Positions 4,926 to 59,991 of a DNA stretch of 64,000 bases are shown one piece after another. Made by a program: the position numbers and the translations under genes. Every line of letters begins with the position of its first letter. Positions within the stretch are counted from its first letter, which is position 1. The notes under the pieces were generated by a model. The model was not told where the DNA came from. It did no database searches and was given only the letters and a program-made list of their open reading frames with translations. This DNA is from Candidatus Methylomirabilota bacterium (GTDB taxonomy: Bacteria > Verrucomicrobiota > Verrucomicrobiia > Limisphaerales > UBA11358), in assembly GCA_035644195.1 (NCBI GenBank), contig DASQOZ010000070.1:463-64462 (forward strand), given 5' to 3'.

Positions 4926-5330
4926 ATGGACGCGATGCAAAAAAAGAAAATGTGGAAAGTGGCGGCGATACATTTGTTGCTTTCTCTACTTGCGATTTTT
5001 GGCGTTTTTTATTTCTTTTTTTTCTTGGGTGATTTTTTATATCTCCCCGTCACATTCTGGAGTAAGATGTGCATGTGGCTTCAACCTTTTTTCTGCCAAT
5101 TGTTCTTTTTCTTTCTAAAGGCTGATGCGGAAAATCTGGAAATTTCTTTGCTTATACAAATTCCACTGTATCTGTTTTGTATTTTAATTTGGAGCTTTTG
5201 TGTTGGTTGGCTTTATACAAAATTAGTTAGTTTGCTCAACCGTGATTCAATTCTCGGCAGAAAAGTTTTTTCAAATCGTAAATCGCAAATCATAAATCGT
5301 AAATTTCTATGCAAGTCACTTCACTTTTAA
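4926..5330 (+). CDS. Hypothetical small membrane protein (AT-rich)
   Basis: 134-aa ORF that is very hydrophobic and Phe/Leu-rich, with lower GC than its neighbours. Its 3' end runs through a heptamer repeat and overlaps the ATPase start. I recognise no family. Confidence 0.3.
   Translation: MDAMQKKKMWKVAAIHLLLSLLAIFGVFYFFFFLGDFLYLPVTFWSKMCMWLQPFFCQLFFFFLKADAENLEISLLIQIPLYLFCILIWSFCVGWLYTKLVSLLNRDSILGRKVFSNRKSQIINRKFLCKSLHF
5273..5304. repeat. Heptanucleotide tandem repeat (AAATCGT-like, about 4.5 units)
   Basis: aaatcgt aaatcgc aaatcat aaatcgt aaat, ending 5 nt before the ATPase ATG at 5309. Confidence 0.8.
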
Positions 5331-9039: not shown

Positions 9040-9102
9040 CCGCAGAGTCGCCGAGACGCAGAGAATTTCAATTTTCAACTCTGCGCCTCCGCGTCTCTGC
9101 GG
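9040..9102. repeat. Imperfect palindromic element (CCGCAGAG...CTCTGCGG)
   Basis: The arms ccgcagagtcgccgagacgcagag and ctctgcgcctccgcgtctctgcgg flank an AT loop. Located between the ABC ATPase and permease genes. Confidence 0.6.
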
Positions 9103-12063: not shown

Positions 12064-12069
12064 TTTCAT

Positions 12070-12126
12070 GGGAGGGTCGCCGTGTCGACGACCCAAATTT
12101 TGGGACGGCGACACGCCGTCCCTCCC
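12070..12126. repeat. GGGAGGG...CCCTCCC palindromic element
   Basis: gggagggtcgccgtgtcgacgaccc aaatttt gggacggcgacacgccgtccctccc. The termini pair, and each arm contains its own hairpin with a tgtc or acac loop. Confidence 0.7.
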
Positions 12127-12173
12127 ATTCACAAGATTGCTTCACGACAAATCCCTGCTAATCTTTTCGTTCC

Positions 12174-13907
12174 GTGACCAAAGGAAAAAAATCTAAAAAT
12201 CGTCCCTTGCGCGTTGGTTTGATTTCACTCGGCTGCGCGAAAAATCTCGTGGACGCCGAGGTCATGCTCGGCTCGCTGATGAAAAGTGGAGTCGAAATCA
12301 CCAACGACGCCGCGCAGGCCGACGCGCTCATCGTCAACACCTGCTCCTTCATTGACTCCGCGCAGGAAGAAAGCGTGGACACGATTCTTGAATCCGTCGA
12401 ACTGCGCGATGCGAACCGGCGCGGCCAGGCCGTCATCGTTTCCGGCTGCCTCTCGCAGCGTTTCCGCGAGGAACTTCCAAAATTATTGCCTGAAGTGGAT
12501 GCGTTCATGGGCATTGACCAGGTCGCGCGAGTCGGCGACATCGTCGGCAAAGCCATTGCCAGCCGTGCGGAAAAAAATGGGAATGAAAAATTAAAAATTA
12601 AAAATTCAAAAACGAAAATTTCCGCGCGCCTGAACGAACTGGAAAAGAACCGCGACCTTTCCGCCCGCGAAAAAGAAGAATCTTTGCGCGGCACGGACAA
12701 ATTTGGCAAAACCAAAACCGTCGTAGCGGCGTCTCGGGAGAGCGCCGCCAATTTATCTTTGGCGGAAGGAACGGCGGCGTTCTCCCGAAACGCCGCTACG
12801 ATCTTCGATGTCACTTCGCGCCCCGTCTTCATTCCCGATTTCGAGACGCCGCGCTTCCGGCTGACGCCGAAACATTTTGCCTATCTGAAGATCGCCGAGG
12901 GTTGCAACCATCCGTGCAGCTTCTGCATCATTCCACGCATGCGCGGCTCGCACCGCAGCCGCACGCAAAAAGACATTGTGGCTGAAGCGAAGGCATTGAT
13001 CGCCGACGGCGTGAAGGAGATCAATTTAATTTCGCAGGACTCGACTTATTACGGATTGGATTTGCGTCCGAACCATTCGCGAGCGATTTCTTCGCCTGAA
13101 AAATTTTCCGCCGCCGCAAAATCGCTCGCCGCCGATGCCACGACCATTTGTTCGCTACTCCGAGAACTGAATTCGATCAAAGGCGATTTCTGGATTCGCC
13201 TGCTCTACACGCATCCGGCGCACTGGACGGACGAATTGATTCAGACAATCGCCGATTGCAAAAAAGTCGCGCGCTACGTTGACATTCCGCTGCAACACAT
13301 CCACGAGAATATGCTCGAACGGATGCGCCGCGAAACATCGCAGCAATACATCGTTGATTTGATTCAGAAAATCCGCGCCGGAATTCCGGGAATTGCGTTA
13401 CGGACGACCTTCATCGTCGGTTTTCCGGGCGAAACGGAAAGCAGTTTTGAAACGCTGCTTGATTTTGTCCGTGAAACGAAATTCGAACGGCTCGGTGTGT
13501 TCACTTATTCGCAGGAAGACGGCACGCTCGCTGGAAAAATGGCCGGACAAATTCCCGACAAGGTCAAACAGAAGCGCCGCGAACTCGTTATGGCCGCGCA
13601 ACACAAGATCGCCCGGCAAGTTTCAGAGAATTTTGTTGGCCGCGAAATCAAAGTCCTCGTCGAAGGCCAGGCGAATGAAAAGCAGCTTCAACAGGCGAAC
13701 GTCAGTTCGTGGGAACACGGCTTGATTCGCGAAGCAGAAACTTCAAAACTTCAAATTCAAAATTATCTCATTGCTCGCGGCGAAGCCGACGCGCCGGACA
13801 TTGACGGTCGCATTTACATTCGCGGCAGATTGCCAATCGGCGAATTTGCCAAAGTCAAAATTATCGGCCACACGGATTACGATTTGATTGCCGAGCCGGT
13901 GGCGTGA
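12174..13907 (+). CDS. rimO: Ribosomal protein S12 methylthiotransferase RimO (with about 100-aa repeat-derived linker insertion)
   Basis: GTG start. MTTase N-domain LRVGLISLGCAKNLVDAEVM, radical-SAM motif EGCNHPCSFCIIP and a C-terminal TRAM-like region. The linker between the domains is far longer than in canonical RimO. Confidence 0.85.
   Translation: MTKGKKSKNRPLRVGLISLGCAKNLVDAEVMLGSLMKSGVEITNDAAQADALIVNTCSFIDSAQEESVDTILESVELRDANRRGQAVIVSGCLSQRFREELPKLLPEVDAFMGIDQVARVGDIVGKAIASRAEKNGNEKLKIKNSKTKISARLNELEKNRDLSAREKEESLRGTDKFGKTKTVVAASRESAANLSLAEGTAAFSRNAATIFDVTSRPVFIPDFETPRFRLTPKHFAYLKIAEGCNHPCSFCIIPRMRGSHRSRTQKDIVAEAKALIADGVKEINLISQDSTYYGLDLRPNHSRAISSPEKFSAAAKSLAADATTICSLLRELNSIKGDFWIRLLYTHPAHWTDELIQTIADCKKVARYVDIPLQHIHENMLERMRRETSQQYIVDLIQKIRAGIPGIALRTTFIVGFPGETESSFETLLDFVRETKFERLGVFTYSQEDGTLAGKMAGQIPDKVKQKRRELVMAAQHKIARQVSENFVGREIKVLVEGQANEKQLQQANVSSWEHGLIREAETSKLQIQNYLIARGEADAPDIDGRIYIRGRLPIGEFAKVKIIGHTDYDLIAEPVA
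12586..12620. repeat. Heptanucleotide tandem repeat (AAAAATT-like, 5 units) inside rimO
   Basis: aaaaatt aaaaatt aaaaatt caaaaac gaaaatt, read in-frame as KLKIKNSKTKI. Confidence 0.8.
12723..12799. repeat. GTAG...CTAC palindromic element (copy E), in-frame inside rimO
   Basis: The left arm gtagcggcgtctcgggagagcgccgcc pairs with the right arm ggcggcgttctcccgaaacgccgctac. Translated as VVAASRESAANLSLAEGTAAFSRNAATI. Confidence 0.75.
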
Positions 13908-15735: not shown

Positions 15736-16500
15736 ATGTCCACCCTCATTTGCTTCGCCCTGAAAGAAGAAGCCGCGCCGTTTCGGAAAATCGCGGCGGG
15801 TATCAGCTTGCGCCGCGACCACCATGTTTCAATTTTGCTCACCGGCATCGGCCGCCAGAACGCCGAAAAATCCCTGCGCGAATTTCTGAATTCTTGTAGG
15901 AGTCGAGGTAACCAGACTCAAATTAAAGAAGAGTTAGAGACTCCTCACGTCGTCTCCTACAAACCGGATTTGGTGCTGACCTGCGGTTTCGCCGGCGGAC
16001 TGAATCCAGAATTGAAACTCGGCGACGTGATTTTTGAAATTTTCCCCAGTAGCAGCCGACGTGAGTCGGCTCAAACTGAAACCGGAAATCAATCAGAGCC
16101 GATTGACATCGGCTGCTACGATAAATTGATTGCCGCCGGCGCAAAGCCCGCAAAAATTTTCTGCGCCGACCGCATCGCCACGACCGTCGCCGAAAAGAAA
16201 AAATTGCGCGACGAAACCGGCGCTGATGCCGTCGAAATGGAATCGGCGGCGATCCACGTCGTCTGCCGCGAACGCGGCATTCCCTGCGCCACCGTCCGCG
16301 TGATCTCCGACACGGCCAATGAAGATTTGCCGCTGGATTTCAACACGCTTTCCAAGCCGGACAAGAATCTGGATTTTGGAAAATTATTCCTGGCCATCGC
16401 CAAATCGCCCGGAAAAATTCCCGCGTTGATGCAGTTGCAGAAGAAAACCAAATTCGCGGCGGAGCAACTGGCGGCGGTTTTGGAGAAAATAATCCGGTAG
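15736..16500 (+). CDS. PNP/UDP-1 family nucleosidase (MTA/SAH nucleosidase or HpnG-like) carrying two in-frame repeat insertions
   Basis: LLTGIGRQNA, CGFAGGLNP and DAVEMESAAI are typical of MtnN/HpnG-type phosphorylases. It lies convergent to the hopanoid-type genes. Confidence 0.6.
   Translation: MSTLICFALKEEAAPFRKIAAGISLRRDHHVSILLTGIGRQNAEKSLREFLNSCRSRGNQTQIKEELETPHVVSYKPDLVLTCGFAGGLNPELKLGDVIFEIFPSSSRRESAQTETGNQSEPIDIGCYDKLIAAGAKPAKIFCADRIATTVAEKKKLRDETGADAVEMESAAIHVVCRERGIPCATVRVISDTANEDLPLDFNTLSKPDKNLDFGKLFLAIAKSPGKIPALMQLQKKTKFAAEQLAAVLEKIIR
15895..15961. repeat. GTAG...CTAC palindromic element (copy A), in-frame in nucleosidase CDS
   Basis: tgtaggagtcgaggtaaccagactc ...aaattaaagaagagtta... 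gagactcctcacgtcgtctcctaca, translated CRSRGNQTQIKEELETPHVVSY. Confidence 0.8.
16049..16119. repeat. GTAG...CTAC palindromic element (copy B), in-frame in nucleosidase CDS
   Basis: gtagcagccgacgtgagtcggctc ...loop... gagccgattgacatcggctgctac, translated SSSRRESAQTETGNQSEPIDIGCY. Confidence 0.8.
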
Positions 16501-16552
16501 GGCCGCGTTGCCGCGCGGTCCAAATTTGGGCGGTGCAGCAGCACCGCCCTAC
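16497..16552. repeat. GTAG...CTAC element (copy F) between convergent genes; probable bidirectional terminator
   Basis: gtagggccgcgttgccgcgcggtcc aaatttg ggcggtgcagcagcaccgccctac. The termini pair and each arm has its own hairpin. The terminal TAG and CTA triplets are the stop codons of both flanking genes. Confidence 0.7.
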
Positions 16553-16974
16553 CGTTGAATCGAATTGGTTTCTGCTGGCGGCGCGGGTTTTTCTTTCGTG
16601 TGTTCGCTGTAGCTGATGAATCCCGCGCCGATGACGATGAGAATCACGCCAACCCAGCGCCACAGCGAAACTTGTTCGTTCAAAAACCACATCGCGGCAA
16701 ACGTGGCGAAGACAAAACTCAATGCGGTCAGCGGCCAGAGAAAACTGATTTCGCTCTCGGACATCAAAATCAGCAGGCAGCCGAAAAACAACGCCTGAAA
16801 AAACATTCCCAGCCAGATGAAATAATTTGTGCCAGCGGCTTTAATGAAACGCGCGACGGCGGCGACACTGTTGGTTTTGGCTTCGCCGATTTGGTTCATG
16901 CCTTTTTTCAAAAACACGATGCCGGTGGATTCGAAAAAAAGTCCGATCAACAAGATGACAATTAATTTGGTCAT
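16549..16974 (-). CDS. Small DMT/EamA-like (ArnE/SMR-like) membrane transporter
   Basis: 141 aa with four hydrophobic helices. The size and pattern match small EamA-domain proteins. Its start overlaps the upstream gene by 4 nt. Confidence 0.5.
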   Translation of the reverse strand: MTKLIVILLIGLFFESTGIVFLKKGMNQIGEAKTNSVAAVARFIKAAGTNYFIWLGMFFQALFFGCLLILMSESEISFLWPLTALSFVFATFAAMWFLNEQVSLWRWVGVILIVIGAGFISYSEHTKEKPAPPAETNSIQR

Positions 16975-22332: not shown

Positions 22333-22992
22333 TCAAAACTCCGGCGGTTGCGAACGCGCCGAGCGCATTTTTTCCGCCTCGATGATCGCCATCGTCCGCC
22401 GCAAATCTTCCTGCTTCGTCGTGCTCAACAAAAGATAATCGAAATTTTTCCACTGCGCGATTTCCTGCCGCGCAACGGCGAGACGTTTTTGAATCTCCTT
22501 CTCGCCGTCCGAATTGCGCTTTTTCAACCGCTCTTCCAATACCGTCAGCGGCGTCGGCGTCAGAAAAACCGTGACCAGCGCGCGTTTCAATTCCGGCTCG
22601 CTTTCCGCCTGTTCGCGGATCGTCGCCGCGCCCTGCACGTCCACGTTCAGCAACACATCCTTGCCCATACGTAATTTGCCGAGCAGTTCCGATTTCAAAA
22701 TGCCGTAGCTATTGCCGTAAACCGTCGCGTGTTCGAGGAAATTTCCCGCGTGCAACCGCTTCAAAAATTCCGACGCGTCAAAAAAATGATAATCCACGCC
22801 GTCCTTTTCGCCGGGACGCGGCGCGCGCGTCGTGCAGGTGATCGCGCGCGTCATGTCCGGTCGCGCGCGAAGCAATTGCTGGCAAAGCGTCGTCTTGCCG
22901 CCGCCCGACGGCGCGGAAATCAAAATCAACAGCGGCGCAGAATTTTTTTTATTCTGGCTTCTGGTTTCTGGCTTCTGGTTCCCGTTTTTCAT
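22333..22992 (-). CDS. gmk: Guanylate kinase with repeat-derived N-terminal extension
   Basis: The ATG at 22992 makes an ATGA overlap with the yicC stop. P-loop SAPSGGGKTT. The first roughly 15 aa, MKNGNQKPETRSQNKK, are encoded by a heptamer repeat. Confidence 0.85.
   Translation of the reverse strand: MKNGNQKPETRSQNKKNSAPLLILISAPSGGGKTTLCQQLLRARPDMTRAITCTTRAPRPGEKDGVDYHFFDASEFLKRLHAGNFLEHATVYGNSYGILKSELLGKLRMGKDVLLNVDVQGAATIREQAESEPELKRALVTVFLTPTPLTVLEERLKKRNSDGEKEIQKRLAVARQEIAQWKNFDYLLLSTTKQEDLRRTMAIIEAEKMRSARSQPPEF
22952..22979. repeat. Heptanucleotide tandem repeat (TTCTGGY x4) in gmk 5' end
   Basis: ttctggc ttctggt ttctggc ttctggt on the + strand, which is CCAGAAR on the coding strand. 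Confidence 0.8.
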
Positions 22993-23870
22993 TCCACGTT
23001 TTGCACTTGCTCCCGAAATCTTTCCAATTCTGTTTTCAGCGTCACGACCTCGCGCGAAATCACCGCGTCGTTCGCCTTCGAGCCGATTGTATTGATTTCG
23101 CGGTTCATTTCCTGCGCCAGAAAATCCAACGTGCGCCCGACCGGCTCGCGCGATTTCCGGCAATCTTCAAATTGTTTGAAATGACTTTGCAGCCGCGTCA
23201 ATTCCTCCGAAATGTCCGAACGATCCGCGAATAAGACAATTTCCTTCAACAACCGCTCGTCATCCGGCGCAATGTTTTCAATTCCCGCGCTCTTGATGCG
23301 TTCGAGCAATTGCTTGCGATAATTTTCCGCCGTCTGCGGCGCTTGCTTCTGAACTTTTTCGACGCTTTGCCGCATGACTTCGATTCTCGTCGCTAAATCT
23401 TCTGCCAAATGCGCGCCTTCGCGTTCGCGCATTTTCACGAGCGACGCCAGAGCTGGTTTCAATGCCTTTTCCACGGCGGGCCAGATGCTTTCTGCCTCGA
23501 CCAATTCTTCATCCGTTTGAAAAACTCCCGGCGCGCGCAAAATCTGATCCAGCGAAACGCCGCCGGATAATTTCAATTGTTTCGCCAGCTTTGCTAATTC
23601 CTTCGCATAAGCCTCGGCGAGCGGTTTATTGATGTGCATCTGCGCGGACGATTTGCCTTCGGCGGCGTGGATGGCGATGCGCGCCGTTACGCGCCCGCGC
23701 GCGACCTGCGCATTGATGGCGTCGCGCACCTGCGATTCGAGCATCTCCAACTCGCGCGGCAGGTTCACGGAAATTTCGGATTGGCGGCGGTTGACCGCGC
23801 CCAGTTCGACGGTGATTTTGAAACCGTCCCGCGCGCATTCGCCGCGACCGTAACCCGTCATGGATTTCAT
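22989..23870 (-). CDS. yicC: YicC-family stress-induced protein
   Basis: The MKSMTGYGRGE start is typical of YicC, and the long helical middle region and C-terminal domain fit the family. The upstream part of the track ORF is ignored. Confidence 0.8.
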   Translation of the reverse strand: MKSMTGYGRGECARDGFKITVELGAVNRRQSEISVNLPRELEMLESQVRDAINAQVARGRVTARIAIHAAEGKSSAQMHINKPLAEAYAKELAKLAKQLKLSGGVSLDQILRAPGVFQTDEELVEAESIWPAVEKALKPALASLVKMREREGAHLAEDLATRIEVMRQSVEKVQKQAPQTAENYRKQLLERIKSAGIENIAPDDERLLKEIVLFADRSDISEELTRLQSHFKQFEDCRKSREPVGRTLDFLAQEMNREINTIGSKANDAVISREVVTLKTELERFREQVQNVE

Positions 23871-32114: not shown

Positions 32115-33794
32115 TCACGAACCCATCATACTTCTCAACGGTAAAAATTCCAACTCCGCTCCCGCTTCCAACTCCGCACAATTCACCGGCACGCGAATCA
32201 GCGCGTTCGCCGCTGCGAAGCAAGTCACGTCGCCGGAACTCGACCATTTCAGCGGATGCAAATTTATTTCGCCGTTCAAAAACTCCAACCGTGCCGGCCA
32301 GAGCGTTTCGCGCGGACACGGCTTGTCGTCCAATTTTGTGGCGAGCCTGCCACGCATAAATTTTGGCGCAATTTCGCCGGTCAGTTTCGCGAGCGCCGTG
32401 GCGACGGCGAAATGAAAACAGACAAAATGCGAGAGCGGGTTGCCCGGCAAACCAAACGCCACGCGCGAACCGTTCACGCCGAAGATGAGCGGCTTGCCAG
32501 GACGCACGTTGACTTGTGAAAAAGCGGTTTCAAAACCGAGCCGTTCCAGCAGCGGACGCGTGAAATCTTTGTCGCCGACACTCGCTCCTCCGGAAATCAA
32601 AATCAAATCCGCCGCCGCGATGCGGTTCAAATCAAGTTGCGCCCACGCCGCCTCAAAATTTTCCGGCAGATGTTTCTGGTCCAAGTCACACGAAAAGTTT
32701 TGCAACAGGCCGCGAATCAAAATCGAATTGCTGTCGCGGATTTGCCCCGGCTCCGGCGTTTGATCAGGCGGAATAATCTCATCGCCCGTCGTGAAGTGTG
32801 CCACGCGCAATCGTGGACTCACCAGCGGCTGCGTGCAGCCCGCCGTCGCCAGCAACGCGAGTTTGCCCGCGTCCAGCCGCACGCCGGATTTCATGAGCGG
32901 CTGTCCAGCCTTCACATCTTCGCCGCGCTTGCGGAGGCTTGATCCACTTTCGAGTTTTGTGATTTTAATTTTGTCGCCGTTGCGCTCGACGTGTTCCTGC
33001 ATTACTACGCGCACACCGTCGCACGGCAACGCCGCGCCCGTCGCCACGCGCACCGCTTCACCGCGCCGGAGCAGGCGCGGTTTCCAATCCGCCGCGTGGA
33101 TCGTGTCCACGATTTGAAAATTGTCGGACGCATCATCGGCCAGAATTGCGTAACCATCGCGCGTGGAGCGGTCATTCGGCGGCAAATCTTCCGGCGCGCA
33201 AACCGTTTCGCGCAGCACGCGGCCAAAAGATTCTTCCAGCGGAACGCGAACCGGCGGCAACGGCTGGCAGCTCGAACTGATTTCCGAAATAGCTTCGTCC
33301 AACGATTTGTAGGAGACGACGTGAGGGGTCTCTGATTTTTTTGAAGTGAGACTCGTCACCTCGTCTCCTACAAAATCAATTGGCAACGCGCGTCGTTTCC
33401 AGATCGGCACGTCGCGTTTGAGGCCATCCATGAATTCGCCGGTCAACGCGATGGCTTCCGCGCGATGCCTGGCGGCGACGCCAAGATAAATTGCCGTTTC
33501 GCCGACGGGAATGATTCCGACGCGATGAATCACTTTGGCGGCGAGACACGGATGCCGCGTGGAAATGTCCTGAATCAGCCGCCGGATTTCGCGCGCGGCC
33601 ATTTCAGGATAGGCTTCATATTCAAGCGCGGAAATTGTTCCGCCATTTTCTTCATCACGGACCAAGCCGCGAAATTCAATCCACGCACCAAGCGCGGTCT
33701 TTGCAGACGGCCACCATTGCGGCGGAGAAATTTTTTCCGCAATCGGTCCTTTCGTGAGTTGAATTTCAATTTCCATGCGACAAAATAATTTCAT
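32115..33794 (-). CDS. MoaE-MoeA fusion protein (molybdopterin synthase catalytic subunit + molybdopterin molybdenumtransferase)
   Basis: The N-terminal roughly 145 aa are MoaE-like (EYEAYPEMA...DVPIWKR). The rest is MoeA-like (SLDEAI...RSTRDGYAI...SGGASVGDKD). The joint is the repeat-encoded DFVGDEVTSLTSKKSETPHVVSYK. Confidence 0.85.
   Translation of the reverse strand: MKLFCRMEIEIQLTKGPIAEKISPPQWWPSAKTALGAWIEFRGLVRDEENGGTISALEYEAYPEMAAREIRRLIQDISTRHPCLAAKVIHRVGIIPVGETAIYLGVAARHRAEAIALTGEFMDGLKRDVPIWKRRALPIDFVGDEVTSLTSKKSETPHVVSYKSLDEAISEISSSCQPLPPVRVPLEESFGRVLRETVCAPEDLPPNDRSTRDGYAILADDASDNFQIVDTIHAADWKPRLLRRGEAVRVATGAALPCDGVRVVMQEHVERNGDKIKITKLESGSSLRKRGEDVKAGQPLMKSGVRLDAGKLALLATAGCTQPLVSPRLRVAHFTTGDEIIPPDQTPEPGQIRDSNSILIRGLLQNFSCDLDQKHLPENFEAAWAQLDLNRIAAADLILISGGASVGDKDFTRPLLERLGFETAFSQVNVRPGKPLIFGVNGSRVAFGLPGNPLSHFVCFHFAVATALAKLTGEIAPKFMRGRLATKLDDKPCPRETLWPARLEFLNGEINLHPLKWSSSGDVTCFAAANALIRVPVNCAELEAGAELEFLPLRSMMGS
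33308..33372. repeat. GTAG...CTAC palindromic element (copy C) at the moaE/moeA joint
   Basis: tgtaggagacgacgtgaggggtctc tgatttttttgaagt gagactcgtcacctcgtctcctaca. The arm sequences are closest to copy A. Confidence 0.8.
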
Positions 33795-52520: not shown

Positions 52521-52531
52521 TTTTATAAAAT

Positions 52532-52603
52532 TGTAGCAGCGGACGTCAGTCCGCTCTGATTTATCTTAAAAAAGAAATGAGCCGGCTCACGTCGGCTGCT
52601 ACA
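52532..52603. repeat. GTAG...CTAC palindromic element (copy D), intergenic
   Basis: tgtagcagcggacgtcagtccgctc ...tgatttatcttaaaaaagaaat... gagccggctcacgtcggctgctaca. Confidence 0.8.
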
Positions 52604-52645
52604 ATTATCCTCGACAATAGCCTGAATTCAGCCTACATTTAGTCT

Positions 52646-57313: not shown

Positions 57314-58837
57314 TCACTCCAAAATTTGCCGTAGCAAAATTTGAAAAACTTCCGTTGATTCAATTTCTTTCACGCCCAAAAATTCTGGCCTTTCACTGAT
57401 GATGACCGGCCAATCGCGTTTGTCCGCCGGACGCCGTCCGTGCGAACCTTTCACCAGCGTCGCGTCGAGCGGAATCACGTCCATCAACATCCGCAGGCCG
57501 AGTTTCTTTTGCAGCAGCCGCCACGCGATTTTTAATTTCGGCAGCGGAATCTTCGGGTCGAGAAACAATTCCACCGGGTCGTAGCCGGGTTTGCGATGGA
57601 TGTCCACCGTCCGCGCAAAATCCGGCGCGCGCGCGTCGTCGAGCCAGTAATAATAAGTGAACCACGCGTTCTCCGGCGCGACGGCGATTAAATCTCCGGC
57701 GCGCGGATGGCCAATGCCCGCTTCGGCCTTTTCCTTTGCACCGAGGACGGTCACGTCCACCTCGACCTGTTTCTCCAGCACGTCGCGCACTTTCGATTCG
57801 AGCGAGCGGTCGTTCAAATAAATGTGCGCGACTTGATGATCGGCCACGGCAAAAACTTTGCTCGCGCCCGCGTCGAGAATTTCCATGCCGAGTTCGTCTT
57901 TGATTGCAAGCCAGCCTTTTTGCCGGAACAAACGGTTCAAATGAATCGGCGCGTCCACGTTCGTGATGCCGTATTCGGAAAGCAAAACGATTTTCACGCC
58001 GCGCGCGCTGAAATATTTGATGAGGTCGCCGACGATAGAATCAATCGCCTGCAAATCGGGAATGATTTTGGGATTGGTGGAACAAGCGTCCCGCTTGTTG
58101 AATTCGGCGTCTCGCCGAATTTTATTTCCGGAAGAATTTTCCGGCGGGACGCCGGAATGAACAGGCGAGACGCCTGTGCCACCCACATAAACGCCATGCC
58201 GCTGCAAATTGTAATCCAAATGCGGCAAATAAATCAGGTTCAGCGGCGGCGCGTATTTATTTTCAATCCACTTCGCCGATTCCGCAATCCAGCGCGTCGC
58301 GCAATCAGCAGAGCCTTGCAACGTTTTGATTCCCGCCGCTGGTCCCCAAAATCCGAAGAACGGAAATTCGCCCAAATCTTTTTTGATTTCTTCGCGGATG
58401 GAATATGGCCATGAATAAATGTCGAAAACTTTTCCGCCGTCGGCCTTGTAAATCGGGCGCGGCGTGATGGAATAATCCGCGCTCGAATACATGTTGAACC
58501 ACCAAAACACATTTGCGATTGATGATTTACGATTTACGATTTCAGATTGTTTTCGGAGTGCGTCCCAGATTTTTTTGCCGTGAACGATGTGATTCGATTG
58601 TTTCCAAAATTGAACTTCAGACAATTCACGATTATGCCAGCCGTTGCCGACGATGCCATGGTCGCGCGGTAATTTGCCGGTGAGATAATTCGATTGTGCC
58701 GTGCAGGTGACGGCGGGAAACGCGGGCGCGATGTGCGCGAGCGCGCCGCGTTTACGAAATTCCGCGATGCGTGGCGTATGTTCGCCGATGAGCGCTTCGG
58801 TGAGGCCGACAACGTTGATGACCGCGACACGATTCAT
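57314..58837 (-). CDS. Alkaline-phosphatase-superfamily nucleotide pyrophosphatase/phosphodiesterase (EboF-like)
   Basis: N-terminus VINVVGLT...AFPAVTCTAQSNYLTGKLPRDHGIVGNGW (metal/Thr nucleophile region). An ATGA overlap joins it to the upstream DHQS-like gene. It carries two repeat-derived in-frame inserts. Confidence 0.7.
   Translation of the reverse strand: MNRVAVINVVGLTEALIGEHTPRIAEFRKRGALAHIAPAFPAVTCTAQSNYLTGKLPRDHGIVGNGWHNRELSEVQFWKQSNHIVHGKKIWDALRKQSEIVNRKSSIANVFWWFNMYSSADYSITPRPIYKADGGKVFDIYSWPYSIREEIKKDLGEFPFFGFWGPAAGIKTLQGSADCATRWIAESAKWIENKYAPPLNLIYLPHLDYNLQRHGVYVGGTGVSPVHSGVPPENSSGNKIRRDAEFNKRDACSTNPKIIPDLQAIDSIVGDLIKYFSARGVKIVLLSEYGITNVDAPIHLNRLFRQKGWLAIKDELGMEILDAGASKVFAVADHQVAHIYLNDRSLESKVRDVLEKQVEVDVTVLGAKEKAEAGIGHPRAGDLIAVAPENAWFTYYYWLDDARAPDFARTVDIHRKPGYDPVELFLDPKIPLPKLKIAWRLLQKKLGLRMLMDVIPLDATLVKGSHGRRPADKRDWPVIISERPEFLGVKEIESTEVFQILLRQILE
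58081..58177. repeat. Composite of four consecutive short hairpins, in-frame inside phosphodiesterase CDS
   Basis: aacaagcgtcccgcttgtt, aattcggcgtctcgccgaatt, ttccggcgggacgccggaa and acaggcgagacgcctgt. The stems are 7-8 bp and the loop cores GTCCC/GGGAC and GTCTC/GAGAC are mutual reverse complements. Confidence 0.75.
58517..58551. repeat. Heptanucleotide tandem repeat (GATTTAC-like x5 = reverse complement of the 5273 unit) inside CDS
   Basis: gattgat gatttac gatttac gatttca gattgtt, read on the minus strand as QSEIVNRKSSI. Confidence 0.75.
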
Positions 58838-59991
58838 TTTTTTTCGGCGCGTTGGCGAAGTTCACCGATCGCTTCGACAATTTTATTTGCGTTCATTTCC
58901 TGAACTTCGATTCCGCGCCCGATTTCTTTCAAAAGCGTGACGGTCAGTTCGCCGCCGAGATGTTCGCGAAATTCTTCGAGGCCGTTGAGGATTTGGAAAT
59001 GGCCGCGACCGTCAACGGCCAACAATTCGTGAGCGAACAATTTGAAACCGAGTTGCTCGAGCAATTTCAAAATCCGTTCGGCGGATGGCGCGTCGAGCAG
59101 ACCGGCGTCGCGCGAGTAAATCACATCGAGAGCAACGCCGATGGCAACGGCTTCGCCGTGAGGAAGATGGAAATTGGAAAGCTGCTCCAGTTTGTGCGCC
59201 GCCCAATGGCCGAAATCCAGCGGGCGCGCCGAACCGATTTCGAACGGGTCGCCGCCCGTGGCGATGTGTTCCAAATGCAATTCGGCACAACGACGGATCA
59301 ATTGCTTCACCGTCGCCGGTTCGAATGAAATCAATTTTTCGACTTCGCGTTCGATTTCGTCGAAAAACTTTTCATCGCGGATGCAAGCGACTTTCACGGC
59401 TTCGACGTAACCGGCGCGTTTCTCTCGCGGCTTGAGCGTGGCAAGCAGATTGAAATCGTTGATGACGGCGTGCGGCGGCGCGAATGTGCCGACAAAATTC
59501 TTTTTTCCGAAGGCATTGATGCTGTTTTTCACGCCGACGCCGGAATCGGCCTGGGACAAAGTCGTCGTCGGAATGCGGACGTGCCGCACGCCGCGATGCG
59601 CGGTTGCCGCGGCAAAACCGGCGACATCGAGCAACGCGCCGCCGCCGACGGCGAGCAAATAGGATTGGCGGTCAATGTGGTAACGATCAATCTGCGACAA
59701 AATGTCGGTGACGATGGTGATGGAATTTTTCGATTGTTCGCCTCCGGCGACAAACAGCGGCGAGCGGGCAAGTTGCAATTGCTTGCCGTGGGCGGAAAAA
59801 TAATTTTCGATCTGACGTTCGAGCGTCGGCTGCGATTGGGCGAGCGCGTCTTCGAGGACAACGAGAACTTTTTTTGGCAGGCCATCGGCAAGCGCGTTTT
59901 TCAAAACCGGATTTGCCGGAGCAAAGATGTCTTCGGTGAAGAAGACGCGCAGTTGCCAGTTGACTTGGATGGAACGCCGAATCTCGGACAT
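58834..59991 (-). CDS. 3-dehydroquinate-synthase-family sugar phosphate cyclase (EboD-like)
   Basis: GGGALLDVAGFAAATAHRGVRHVRIPTTTLSQADSGVGVKNSIN and the metal-binding HGEAVAIG region. It is paired with an AP-family enzyme rather than with aro genes. Confidence 0.65.
   Translation of the reverse strand: MSEIRRSIQVNWQLRVFFTEDIFAPANPVLKNALADGLPKKVLVVLEDALAQSQPTLERQIENYFSAHGKQLQLARSPLFVAGGEQSKNSITIVTDILSQIDRYHIDRQSYLLAVGGGALLDVAGFAAATAHRGVRHVRIPTTTLSQADSGVGVKNSINAFGKKNFVGTFAPPHAVINDFNLLATLKPREKRAGYVEAVKVACIRDEKFFDEIEREVEKLISFEPATVKQLIRRCAELHLEHIATGGDPFEIGSARPLDFGHWAAHKLEQLSNFHLPHGEAVAIGVALDVIYSRDAGLLDAPSAERILKLLEQLGFKLFAHELLAVDGRGHFQILNGLEEFREHLGGELTVTLLKEIGRGIEVQEMNANKIVEAIGELRQRAEKK

Follow-up and report, generated by a model that had tools for sequence, protein, structure and literature searches.

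Why a conserved ribosome-modification enzyme should carry two different types of repeated DNA in its reading frame is the question raised by rimO, the gene for ribosomal protein S12 methylthiotransferase, in a 64,000-nt stretch of contig DASQOZ010000070.1, from a verrucomicrobium of soil or freshwater (the window, to whose first letter all positions without a locus name refer). An earlier note on this DNA had described an interdomain linker about 100 amino acids (aa) longer than usual and built from a heptamer repeat and a GTAG...CTAC palindrome. Here we find that two repeat types do lie in frame where the N-domain meets the radical-SAM domain, as repeats of DNA and not merely as low-complexity protein, and that they bracket a segment of different character. 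The reading we favour, at a probability of about 75%, is that neutral repeat DNA is tolerated in a probably disordered linker, which would be an inherited, partly functional insert with permissive slots.

The window protein is RimO, comprising a UPF0004 domain (aa 14-113), a radical-SAM domain with the CxxxCxxC motif (Radical_SAM, aa 240-432), and a C-terminal TRAM domain (TRAM_2, aa 529-576), all above the Pfam cut-offs. C21, C57, C92, C244, C248, and C251 are invariant in 77 homologues, the RimO of Thermotoga maritima (Protein Data Bank (PDB) entry 4JC0) is matched with E = 1e-90, and a database protein of 100% identity carries the RimO annotation. When aligned to 4JC0, query residues 12-121 correspond to chain residues 1-108 and residues 227-500 to 131-382, leaving a linker of 105 aa against 22 aa in T. 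maritima. The expansion is real, and the canonical linker of 20-30 aa given in the earlier note has its counterpart in these 22 aa; the surplus, however, is about 83 residues rather than 100, of which 38 are repeat-coded (11 by the heptamer array and 27 by the palindrome); the linker as a whole is not built from these repeats. Two other inserts relative to T. maritima were identified, one of about 22 aa in the radical-SAM domain and one of about 28 aa before the TRAM domain (Table 1).

We give hardly any credence to mis-assembly, a pseudogene, or an annotation error as the source of these features: while the contig is metagenome-assembled and its NCBI label (Methylomirabilota) is at odds with all relatives, the open reading frame (ORF) is intact, with three domains and the cluster cysteines, more than 200 independent assemblies covering many samples show the same architecture, and the repeat segments are always in frame. 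The 100%-identical protein is also labelled Methylomirabilota at NCBI, and all close relatives (identity of 88% or less) come from Verrucomicrobiia/Limisphaerales metagenome-assembled genomes; the contig is probably mis-binned.

The first repeat (slot 1) is a heptanucleotide simple-sequence repeat, that is, head-to-tail 7-nt units in at least three copies. Tandem Repeats Finder reports period 7, 4.3 copies, 91% matches, and a score of 46; the unit AATTAAA is a rotation of AAAAATT, and the array translates as ...EKLKIKNSKTKI, being read in three frames to give a Lys-rich peptide with a periodicity of 7 aa. Its period-7 run score of 17 compares with maxima of 14 and 12 in dinucleotide-preserving shuffles of the window (100 shuffles) and of the gene (1000 shuffles), placing the array that the earlier note had read as KLKIKNSKTKI above all shuffles. 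The 30-nt array is identical in the window and in loci L004 and L009, and the peptide KLKIKNSKTKI is present in at least 13 database clusters as well as in these two loci. The variation in heptamer copy number that had been suggested was not seen: within a unit type, no difference in unit number was observed among the 13 or more clusters or among the loci with the same unit, and length gaps between unit types are 6 or 12 nt, never 7 nt. With no copy-number differences observed and the same peptide in at least 13 clusters, slot 1 does not qualify as a contingency (phase-variable) locus.

The second repeat (slot 2) is a palindrome of 81 nt, or 27 codons, and hence in frame. Its 29-nt arms (12721-12749 and 12773-12801) are 93% complementary and enclose a 23-nt spacer, with GTAG at 12723 and CTAC at 12796-12799; the inverted-repeat score of 23 exceeds the shuffle maxima of 17 (window) and 15 (gene), confirming the element that the earlier note had placed at 12723-12799. 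The GTAG tag stands beside an arm hairpin of 9 bp with a tetraloop, in agreement with the defined stem of 5-13 bp of GTAG repetitive extragenic palindromes (REPs), and the two inverted REPs with a short spacer correspond to a REP doublet forming a hairpin (REPIN). In one respect the copy departs from the definition of REPs, namely that it is not extragenic, lying in frame within rimO. The sub-type of its right REP also occurs in metagenome copies (e.g. GCTGCGTTCTCCCGAACGCAGCTAC), and in the 64-kb window the rimO copy is the sole member of its REP sub-family.

Among relatives that carry a palindrome in this slot, L003, L010, L017, and L202 have mutually homologous spacers in the same orientation (15-22 matches in 25), whereas the window spacer matches them solely as a reverse complement (for L003, 17 of 25 with a 12-nt exact run, against a longest direct run of 3 nt). 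The whole palindrome agrees with those of L201, L202, and L203 at 63-66 of 77 positions when inverted and at 59-61 of 77 when direct, and its arm tetraloops are swapped in keeping with inversion. These alignments indicate that the window palindrome is inverted relative to the copies of six relatives, and that the inversion was an event at the DNA level, either recombination between the arms or re-insertion; given that the element is palindromic, the peptide is barely altered by it.

As RNA, the 81-nt palindrome has a folding energy of -63.4 kcal/mol (z = -9.9), a stability that none of 200 shuffles reached. Such a very stable mRNA hairpin (-63 kcal/mol) could control translation or decay, REPs being suggested in the literature to act often as RNA elements (PMC3733652), or the heptamer tract could be a phase-variation switch, as 7 is not a multiple of 3 and a one-unit change shifts the frame. 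We consider regulation of either kind very improbable, given the lack of copy-number variants in the clusters and same-unit loci described above, the poor substrate for slippage that a short, imperfect array (4.3 units, 91%) offers, the patchy occurrence of the hairpin among close relatives, the intact state of rimO in almost all of the approximately 200 sequences examined, and the absence of any Rfam match above generic hairpin noise (sub-threshold microRNA-precursor matches alone).

The REP family is multi-copy and dispersed over unrelated loci. The 26-nt left-arm pattern GTAGCGGCGNCTCGGNAGAGCGCCGC matches exactly at 140 or more sites, spread over 120 or more metagenome contigs, and no RimO was detected by tblastn in the contigs with the arm-pattern matches listed. 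Of the 140 copies listed, 62 are followed at a distance of 15-26 nt by an inverted partner with CTAC at its end, the others being singlets. Partner arms are sub-types with compensatory changes within their own hairpin (e.g. GCGGCGCTC[TGCC]GAGaCGCCGC; GCGGCTTTC[TGCC]GAAAGCCGC; GCTGCGTTC[TCCC]GAACGCAGC). Across 44 distinct arms, 92.3% of cells are paired in the arm hairpin vs 83.0% when shuffled, there are 23 double-change (compensatory) cells vs 6.5, and the covariation score is 0.182 vs 0.065 (0 of 500 shuffles equal; all slid registers 0.06 or less). With GTAG and a covarying 9-bp hairpin, the arm fits the definition of a GTAG REP, and the window palindrome is an inverted doublet (REPIN) of this dispersed family.

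A gene of about 190 aa is flanked by these REPs in L139, L165, L185, and L199. It contains an HUH motif (YVLMPDHLHLLW) and a Tyr motif (SCFYILDNP) and matches NCBIfam NF047646 (REP-associated tyrosine transposase, RAYT) with E = 2e-14 over profile positions 12-145 of 146, its 53.5 bits lying below the cut-off of 80. Its best PDB match is E. coli TnpA-REP (4ER8) with a weak E = 0.32, and a Pfam search of it gave no match.

Copies of the family also lie within other coding sequences. Of the 87 copies with enough flank, about 12 lie in a frame that stays open for 90 codons or more on each side, and Pfam placed six of these in genuine genes, for the most part with the REP at a domain boundary; in-frame REPs are found in a Clp-type ATPase (between AAA_lid_9 and AAA_2), UvrA (two doublets), a GT4 glycosyltransferase (between its two domains), GH2 and GH106 proteins, and an Eco57I-type methylase. 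The UvrA domains belong to an ORF of about 1690 aa in L091 (2-5074, minus strand) which, in addition to two REPINs of the rimO family, has peptides typical of other palindrome families (ECGDLSPL...KSGDKSPHSK, GQASRLS...).

Between the two slots lies a linker core of about 35 aa (consensus ISARLNELEKNRDLSxHEKEESLRGTDKFGKTKTVV) whose protein sequence is conserved in the 120 close homologues and, as far as about 65% identity, in most orthologues, and in which a repeat search of the window detected no DNA repeat. The long linker itself is shared by every one of the 120 top-ranking database homologues (555-596 aa, 82-88% identical) and by most of 80 genomic orthologues (61-86% identity), all of which are from metagenome-assembled genomes of subdivision-3 Verrucomicrobia (Limisphaerales/Pedosphaerales); it extends to orthologues of about 65% identity and is shorter solely in the most distant of the 80. 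These comparisons point to a long linker and core that are an old, lineage-specific, protein-conserved feature of the clade, not built from repeats, with a core that, judged by its conservation, is clearly under purifying selection. The earlier note had named an equally long linker in orthologues, conserved as protein and not as DNA repeat, as the finding that would speak against it. This is what we observe for linker length and core, whereas the segments it had flagged are hypervariable DNA-repeat slots, at which close relatives differ in repeat type, unit sequence, and orientation. As for the disordered loop that it had suggested looking for, an AlphaFold2 model has a predicted local distance difference test score (pLDDT) of 25-31 for aa 160-230 and under 50 for aa 137-143, and the linker is probably flexible or disordered; the model is, however, poor overall (mean pLDDT 59.9) because its input alignment contains only homologues at least 82% identical.

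The flanks of each slot are homologous across relatives, and the repeat itself differs. Slot 1 sits between RAxK and K[IV]xxRL and holds arrays of about 30 nt with species-dependent units, many of them perfect despite gene divergence of 15-20%; in L007 and L008 it has decayed. Slot 2 sits between GKTKTVV and P[LI]xDVT and holds C-rich heptamer arrays, a GTAG palindrome, or almost nothing (Table 1). At least 10 different heptamer units occur across the slots of relatives, and a clear period-7 run (run score of 12 or more) is present at site 1 in about 26 of 81 genes and at site 2 in about 16 of 81. A third slot is formed by the insert before the TRAM domain, which in the window consists of a conserved ANVSSWEHGLIRE segment followed by a variable A-rich repeat (AAACTTCA x 2.2 at 13738-13755). 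Heptamer arrays occupy it in L001, L006, L007, L015, L016, L023, L029, and L201-L203 (units CTCGACA, AATCCGC, AAATCGG, and ACTCGTC), and in L010 (7574-7661) and L017 (7568-7640) it holds a GTAG REPIN with a palindrome differing from that of slot 2. Slots 2 and 3 are therefore both occupied by a heptamer array in some relatives and by a REPIN in others. Palindromes were also observed in the rimO of L023 (3115-3205), just before the radical-SAM insert, and in those of L032 (6487-6579) and L038 (1303-1393), where they replace the linker core; rimO seems to be a repeated target of palindromes.

Could the repeat peptides themselves be selected in RimO, as a Lys-rich segment contacting rRNA or S12, for example, or as a helical hairpin formed by AASRxSAA...AAxSRxAAT, with the DNA repeats incidental? 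Several slot-1 units are Lys-rich (KLKIKNSK, SQKSEVRSQK, KVQSPKSKV, SGKRKAESGK), the same peptide is retained in many carriers, and the neighbouring core appears to be under clear purifying selection. We nonetheless judge a function at the protein level to be decidedly unlikely, since slot 2 is unrelated or near-empty in close relatives (such as L004 and L029), six relatives have the element in the orientation opposite to that of the window, unrelated proteins contain the same REP peptide, the hairpin covaries at the DNA level, and the slots are missing from more distant orthologues.

Heptamer arrays are not confined to rimO. Of the periods seen in arrays with three or more copies across 932 kb of related DNA (the window and 80 loci together), 7 is the most frequent, with 86 arrays, 51 of which are in rimO and 35 outside; array length peaks at 25-34 nt and does not exceed 43 nt. 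On the sense strand, units in rimO are rich in A and C (34% each) and poor in G and T, as expected if survival requires the absence of stops in all three frames. The units GCCAGAA, CAACATC, AAAGTCC, CCATCCT, CACTCCG, and AATCCGC recur in other genes of other genomes, and the same units are found again in distant lineages. In addition to the two in-frame arrays in other genes of the window (Table 1), Pfam searches of relatives revealed in-frame arrays in the N-terminal tail of an ABC ATPase, in XseA, in a DinG-like helicase, and in a DUF5069 protein. Units of the ABC ATPase array differ among the orthologues in L002, L004, and L049, and this gene is a second orthologous slot with unit turnover. 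It lies about 4.3 kb upstream of rimO, carries arrays at codons ~7-17 (units AATCCGC, AAATCGG, and CACTCCG) in five loci, and in L002 is identified by Pfam as an ABC-transporter ATPase. The REP and heptamer classes are physically linked in composites at L017 12205-12355 and L142 ~8964, which consist of a GTAG REP, a heptamer array, a spacer, an inverted array, and a REP ending in CTAC.

A more active process may be imagined, in which subdivision-3 Verrucomicrobia keep cassette slots in the linkers of housekeeping proteins, and a period-specific or site-directed mechanism writes heptamer arrays of about 30 nt into these fixed slots, with REPINs as substitutes and with exchange between lineages and loci; the slots would include the three in rimO and those in the ABC ATPase, XseA, guanylate kinase, and phosphodiesterase. 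Such a process would account for 10 or more units at one orthologous slot with sharp homology boundaries, for arrays that are often perfect though the genes are 15-20% apart, for the narrow range of array lengths, for the return of the same units in other genes of other genomes, for the mosaic pairing of slot-1 and slot-2 types, for the alternation of arrays and REPINs at slots 2 and 3, and for the REPs that adjoin heptamer arrays in the intergenic composites. We consider it unlikely all the same: most units at one slot differ from each other by 1-2 substitutions (AAGTCAG, AAGCCAG, AAGTCCA, AAGCCCA), which fits in-situ mutation with homogenisation, the mosaicism could stem from ordinary homologous recombination or chimeric metagenome assemblies, the heptamer excess in other bacteria has tentatively been put down to polymerase slippage (PMC4692102), and no enzyme candidate was found. 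Arrays within a locus are, moreover, weakly more alike than arrays between loci (10.4% vs 5.7% of pairs within one mismatch, permutation p ~0.07); genome-specific heptamer families were rejected on these figures and are not claimed.

According to the reading we favour, in which inherited permissive slots accumulate tolerated repeats, the linker core would be an ordinary protein segment, and the two slots that bracket it, together with a third near the TRAM domain, would be under little protein constraint and have been colonised by two kinds of small repeats common in these genomes. Slot 1 of the window would be a heptanucleotide microsatellite of about 30 nt that has become fixed and has partly decayed. 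Heptamer units would diverge as an inherited array mutates and is homogenised internally by slippage or conversion, and an array would at times be replaced, whereas the REPIN of slot 2 would have arrived in some lineages by RAYT-mediated transposition, the candidate transposase of the family being of the RAYT type (IS200/IS605-like, HUH/Tyr). In the window, the REPIN would since have flipped through recombination between its own arms or through re-insertion. Repeats would persist where their total length is a multiple of 3, where they are stop-free in frame, and where the linker is flexible. What is observed directly comprises the repeats, the family to which they belong, their variation between orthologous sites, and their occurrence in the reading frames of other genes; that they are neutral for RimO catalysis is something we infer.

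Several points weigh against this reading, the inferential standing of neutrality being the first. Disorder of the linker leans on a model with a mean pLDDT of 59.9. KLKIKNSKTKI and its 30-nt DNA are unchanged across lineages whose RimO differs by about 15%, a constancy that could reflect selection on the segment, and a characteristic array length of about 30 nt is not what plain growth by slippage predicts. The link to a transposase is at the level of the family and comes from other contigs, with a score short of the curated cut-off, and tblastn detected no RAYT-like gene in the window or the 80 genomic loci. Slot-1 and slot-2 types, lastly, combine mosaically across relatives, the REPIN being found with five different slot-1 units and CCATCCT with four; simple vertical evolution in situ does not readily produce such a pattern, which calls for recombination, parallel origin, or chimeric assemblies. 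A neighbour-joining tree of RimO domains, compared with cassette type, has too low a resolution to part recombination from parallel change.

The locus offers a clean, well-controlled case of mobile REP DNA within the gene of an essential-type enzyme. Empty sites, other occupants, and an inverted allele among rimO orthologues constitute a natural experiment on REPIN insertion, flipping, and loss, and show how much foreign peptide the linker of a radical-SAM methylthiotransferase tolerates. Non-triplet microsatellites are normally kept out of coding DNA or act as on/off switches. In several housekeeping genes of the present lineages, all three phases of arrays about 30 nt long, made of 7-nt units, are translated; the arrays are stable within lineages and differ in unit between them at the same codon positions. 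If a specific mutational mechanism proved true, it would bear on the long-noted, unexplained heptamer excess of bacteria, and if cassettes were truly written and exchanged, coding sequences would be diversifying in a way not recognised so far, and the arrays would not be passive junk. In practical terms, the repeat segments will mislead alignments, domain boundaries, and gene-length statistics in verrucomicrobial metagenome-assembled genomes.

Table 1. Features of rimO and of other genes and loci discussed in the text, with positions in the window unless a locus is given.
Feature	Position or loci	Strand	Basis or remark
rimO (ribosomal protein S12 methylthiotransferase)	12174-13907	+	intact ORF, 577 aa
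Interdomain linker, aa 122-226	12537-12851	+	4JC0 alignment
Slot 1, degenerate heptanucleotide array (AATTAAA) x 4.3, reading EKLKIKNSK	12582-12611	+	Tandem Repeats Finder
Protein-conserved linker core, ISARLNELEKNRDLSAREKEESLRGTDKFGKTKTV(V)	12618-12722	+	homologue alignments
Slot 2, REPIN-like inverted doublet of GTAG REP, reading VVAASRESAANLSLAEGTAAFSRNAATI	12721-12801	+	inverted repeat
Left REP: GTAG + C + hairpin GGCGTCTC[GGGA]GAGCGCC	12723-12749	+	matches metagenome arm pattern
Doublet spacer (loop)	12750-12772	+	reverse complement of relatives' spacer
Right REP, inverted: hairpin GGCGTTC[TCCC]G(A)AACGCC + G + CTAC	12773-12799	-	inverted repeat
Radical-SAM cluster motif CNHPCSFC	12903-12926	+	sequence
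Radical-SAM-domain insert, ~22 aa (SRAISSPEKFSAAAKSLAADA)	13077-13142	+	protein-conserved, no repeat; 4JC0 alignment
Slot 3, ~28-aa insert before TRAM domain	13674-13760	+	4JC0 alignment
GGGAGG...CCTCCC palindrome, directly upstream of rimO	12068-12128	.	inverted-repeat search
GGGAGG...CCTCCC palindrome, second copy, overlapping rimO stop codon	13907-13973	.	inverted-repeat search
In-frame GCCAGAA x 3.9 (sense strand), guanylate kinase N-terminal tail	array 22952-22978; gene 22336-23166	-
In-frame AAATCGT x 4.6 (sense strand), type I phosphodiesterase, inside Phosphodiest domain	array 58511-58542; gene 57317-58861	-
Arrays in gene ~4.3 kb upstream of rimO	L002 1719-1750; L004 1759-1784; L006 1557-1589; L029 1703-1736; L049 1777-1804
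Tandem-armed hairpins	window 9040-9102; L076 7655-7733; L032 7751-7843; L077 5304-5370
Tandem-armed hairpins, syntenic set at ~2.8-2.9 kb	L004 2945-3030; L006 2768-2831; L029 2907-2996; L039 2877-2958; L022 2780-2933
Slot 1, AAAAATT-type unit	window, L001, L004, L009, L201
Slot 1, AGAAGTC unit	L002, L039
Slot 1, AGAAGCC unit	L005
Slot 1, GGAAAGC unit	L003, L006, L202
Slot 1, AAAGTCC or AAAGCCC unit	L029, L046, L203, L030, L033, L080
Slot 1, CAACATC, CGAACAT or AACCTTC unit	L010, L015-L017, L020, L022, L023
Slot 2, C-rich arrays			units CCATCCT, ATCCCGC, CAATCCG, CACTCCG, AACTCTC, CCCATCT, TCGCCCC, CACGAAT
Slot 2, almost empty	L029, L004		L029 VVSAKNPAAPV; L004 VVSPQSAI
Slot 2, GTAG palindrome	window, L003, L010, L017, L201-L203; half in L023		~15 of 120 proteins

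Other repeats were observed around rimO and elsewhere in the window. A different palindrome family (GGGAGG...CCTCCC; TGGGAGGGACGGCGTGTCGCCGTCC...GGACGCCGACACGGCGTCCCTCCCA) brackets rimO with two copies, one 26-nt arm of the downstream copy being 100% complementary to an arm of the upstream copy; the downstream copy may be a terminator, a possible role given its overlap with the stop codon, or a member of another REP-like family. Four further GTAG...CTAC doublets with other arm sequences (e.g. GTAGCAGCCGACGTGAGTCGGCTC), every arm forming its own hairpin, lie at 16049-16119, 16495-16554, 33306-33374, and 52529-52606; the first is kept at the syntenic place in L001 (7526-7590), and a relative of the third lies at another locus in L046 (2805-2884). 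An array of (AAATCGT) x 4.6 at 5273-5304, which ends 5 nt before an ATG at 5310, could be a 5'-untranslated-region or promoter-proximal element. Its unit recurs in L012, L017, and L022 and at 58511 on the minus strand, where a 5'-untranslated-region role was ruled out as Pfam places the array in the phosphodiesterase gene. Intergenic hairpins were also found whose arms are inverted tandem 7-10-mers (e.g. AACCACGGATGGACACCGATGCACACGGAT...ATCCGTG...), that of L076 lying directly 3' of the rimO stop. Five of these hairpins are syntenic and have different units, indicating that tandem periodicity and arm symmetry co-evolve.

Among known systems, the closest are the GTAG-tagged REPs and REPINs with RAYT transposases, reportedly described by Nunvar in 2010 and by Bertels and Rainey in 2011. 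The elements studied here share with them the GTAG beside a 9-bp hairpin with a tetraloop, sub-families with compensatory stem changes, the occurrence of singlets and of inverted doublets with a spacer of about 20 nt, dispersal, and, at the level of the family, flanking of a candidate RAYT-like gene. They differ from described REPINs in that an orthologous slot alternates between REPIN and heptamer arrays and that one copy is inverted relative to its orthologues, and the RAYT-like protein is divergent from known RAYTs, being below the NCBIfam cut-off and lacking a Pfam match. A second parallel is with the Rickettsia palindromic elements (RPEs), reportedly described by Ogata et al. in 2000, which are likewise palindromic selfish DNA in frame within conserved housekeeping genes, adding a peptide without destroying the protein. 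The window element is nevertheless GTAG-tagged and verrucomicrobial and is not an RPE, the in-frame lifestyle alone being shared; RPE-1 is a longer palindromic insertion, and the hosts of RPEs are obligate intracellular alphaproteobacteria. The short intragenic repeats RPE-4 and RPE-6 of R. conorii are CGTC-tagged, and CGTC repeats have no associated transposase (PMC3733652).

GTAG REPs have been reported in the Planctomycetes-Verrucomicrobia-Chlamydiae (PVC) superphylum; the intragenic ones reach their highest number in Opitutus terrae, a verrucomicrobium (Di Nocera et al. 2013, PMC3733652), where intragenic REP dimers encode 20-30 aa and both uvrA genes are doubly hit (PMC3733652). The present family resembles these in the coding length of dimers within genes and in the double hit of uvrA; it differs in having a copy in rimO, which does not appear in the main text of PMC3733652 (the supplementary list of intragenic REPs was not searched), and in its host order (subdivision 3, Limisphaerales/Pedosphaerales).

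Heptameric repeats are over-represented in bacteria, as in the short tandemly repeated repetitive (STRR) heptamers of cyanobacteria and GGGAATC or GGGGAYT of Xanthomonas and Nostoc (PMC4692102), an excess tentatively ascribed to polymerase slippage (PMC4692102). Common to those repeats and to ours are tandem 7-nt units, several unit families per clade, wide variation in sequence and length at orthologous sites of close species, and some inverted pairs that form hairpins. Those repeats are, however, intergenic and often G-rich (G-quadruplex forming), whereas the short verrucomicrobial arrays comprise about 4 units, are rich in A and C on the sense strand, lie in frame in conserved genes, and are translated in all three phases. 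No description of heptanucleotide repeats in Verrucomicrobia was found in the literature, nor any of stable in-frame heptamer cassettes, for which no dedicated search was made. Contingency loci likewise have a non-triplet repeat unit within an ORF; slot 1 is unlike them in showing no copy-number polymorphism, in its degenerate array, and in lying in the gene of a housekeeping enzyme. Set against these systems, the REPIN of rimO is a further case of a described class, the intragenic GTAG REPs, and the turnover of in-frame heptamer arrays at orthologous slots is the less familiar part.

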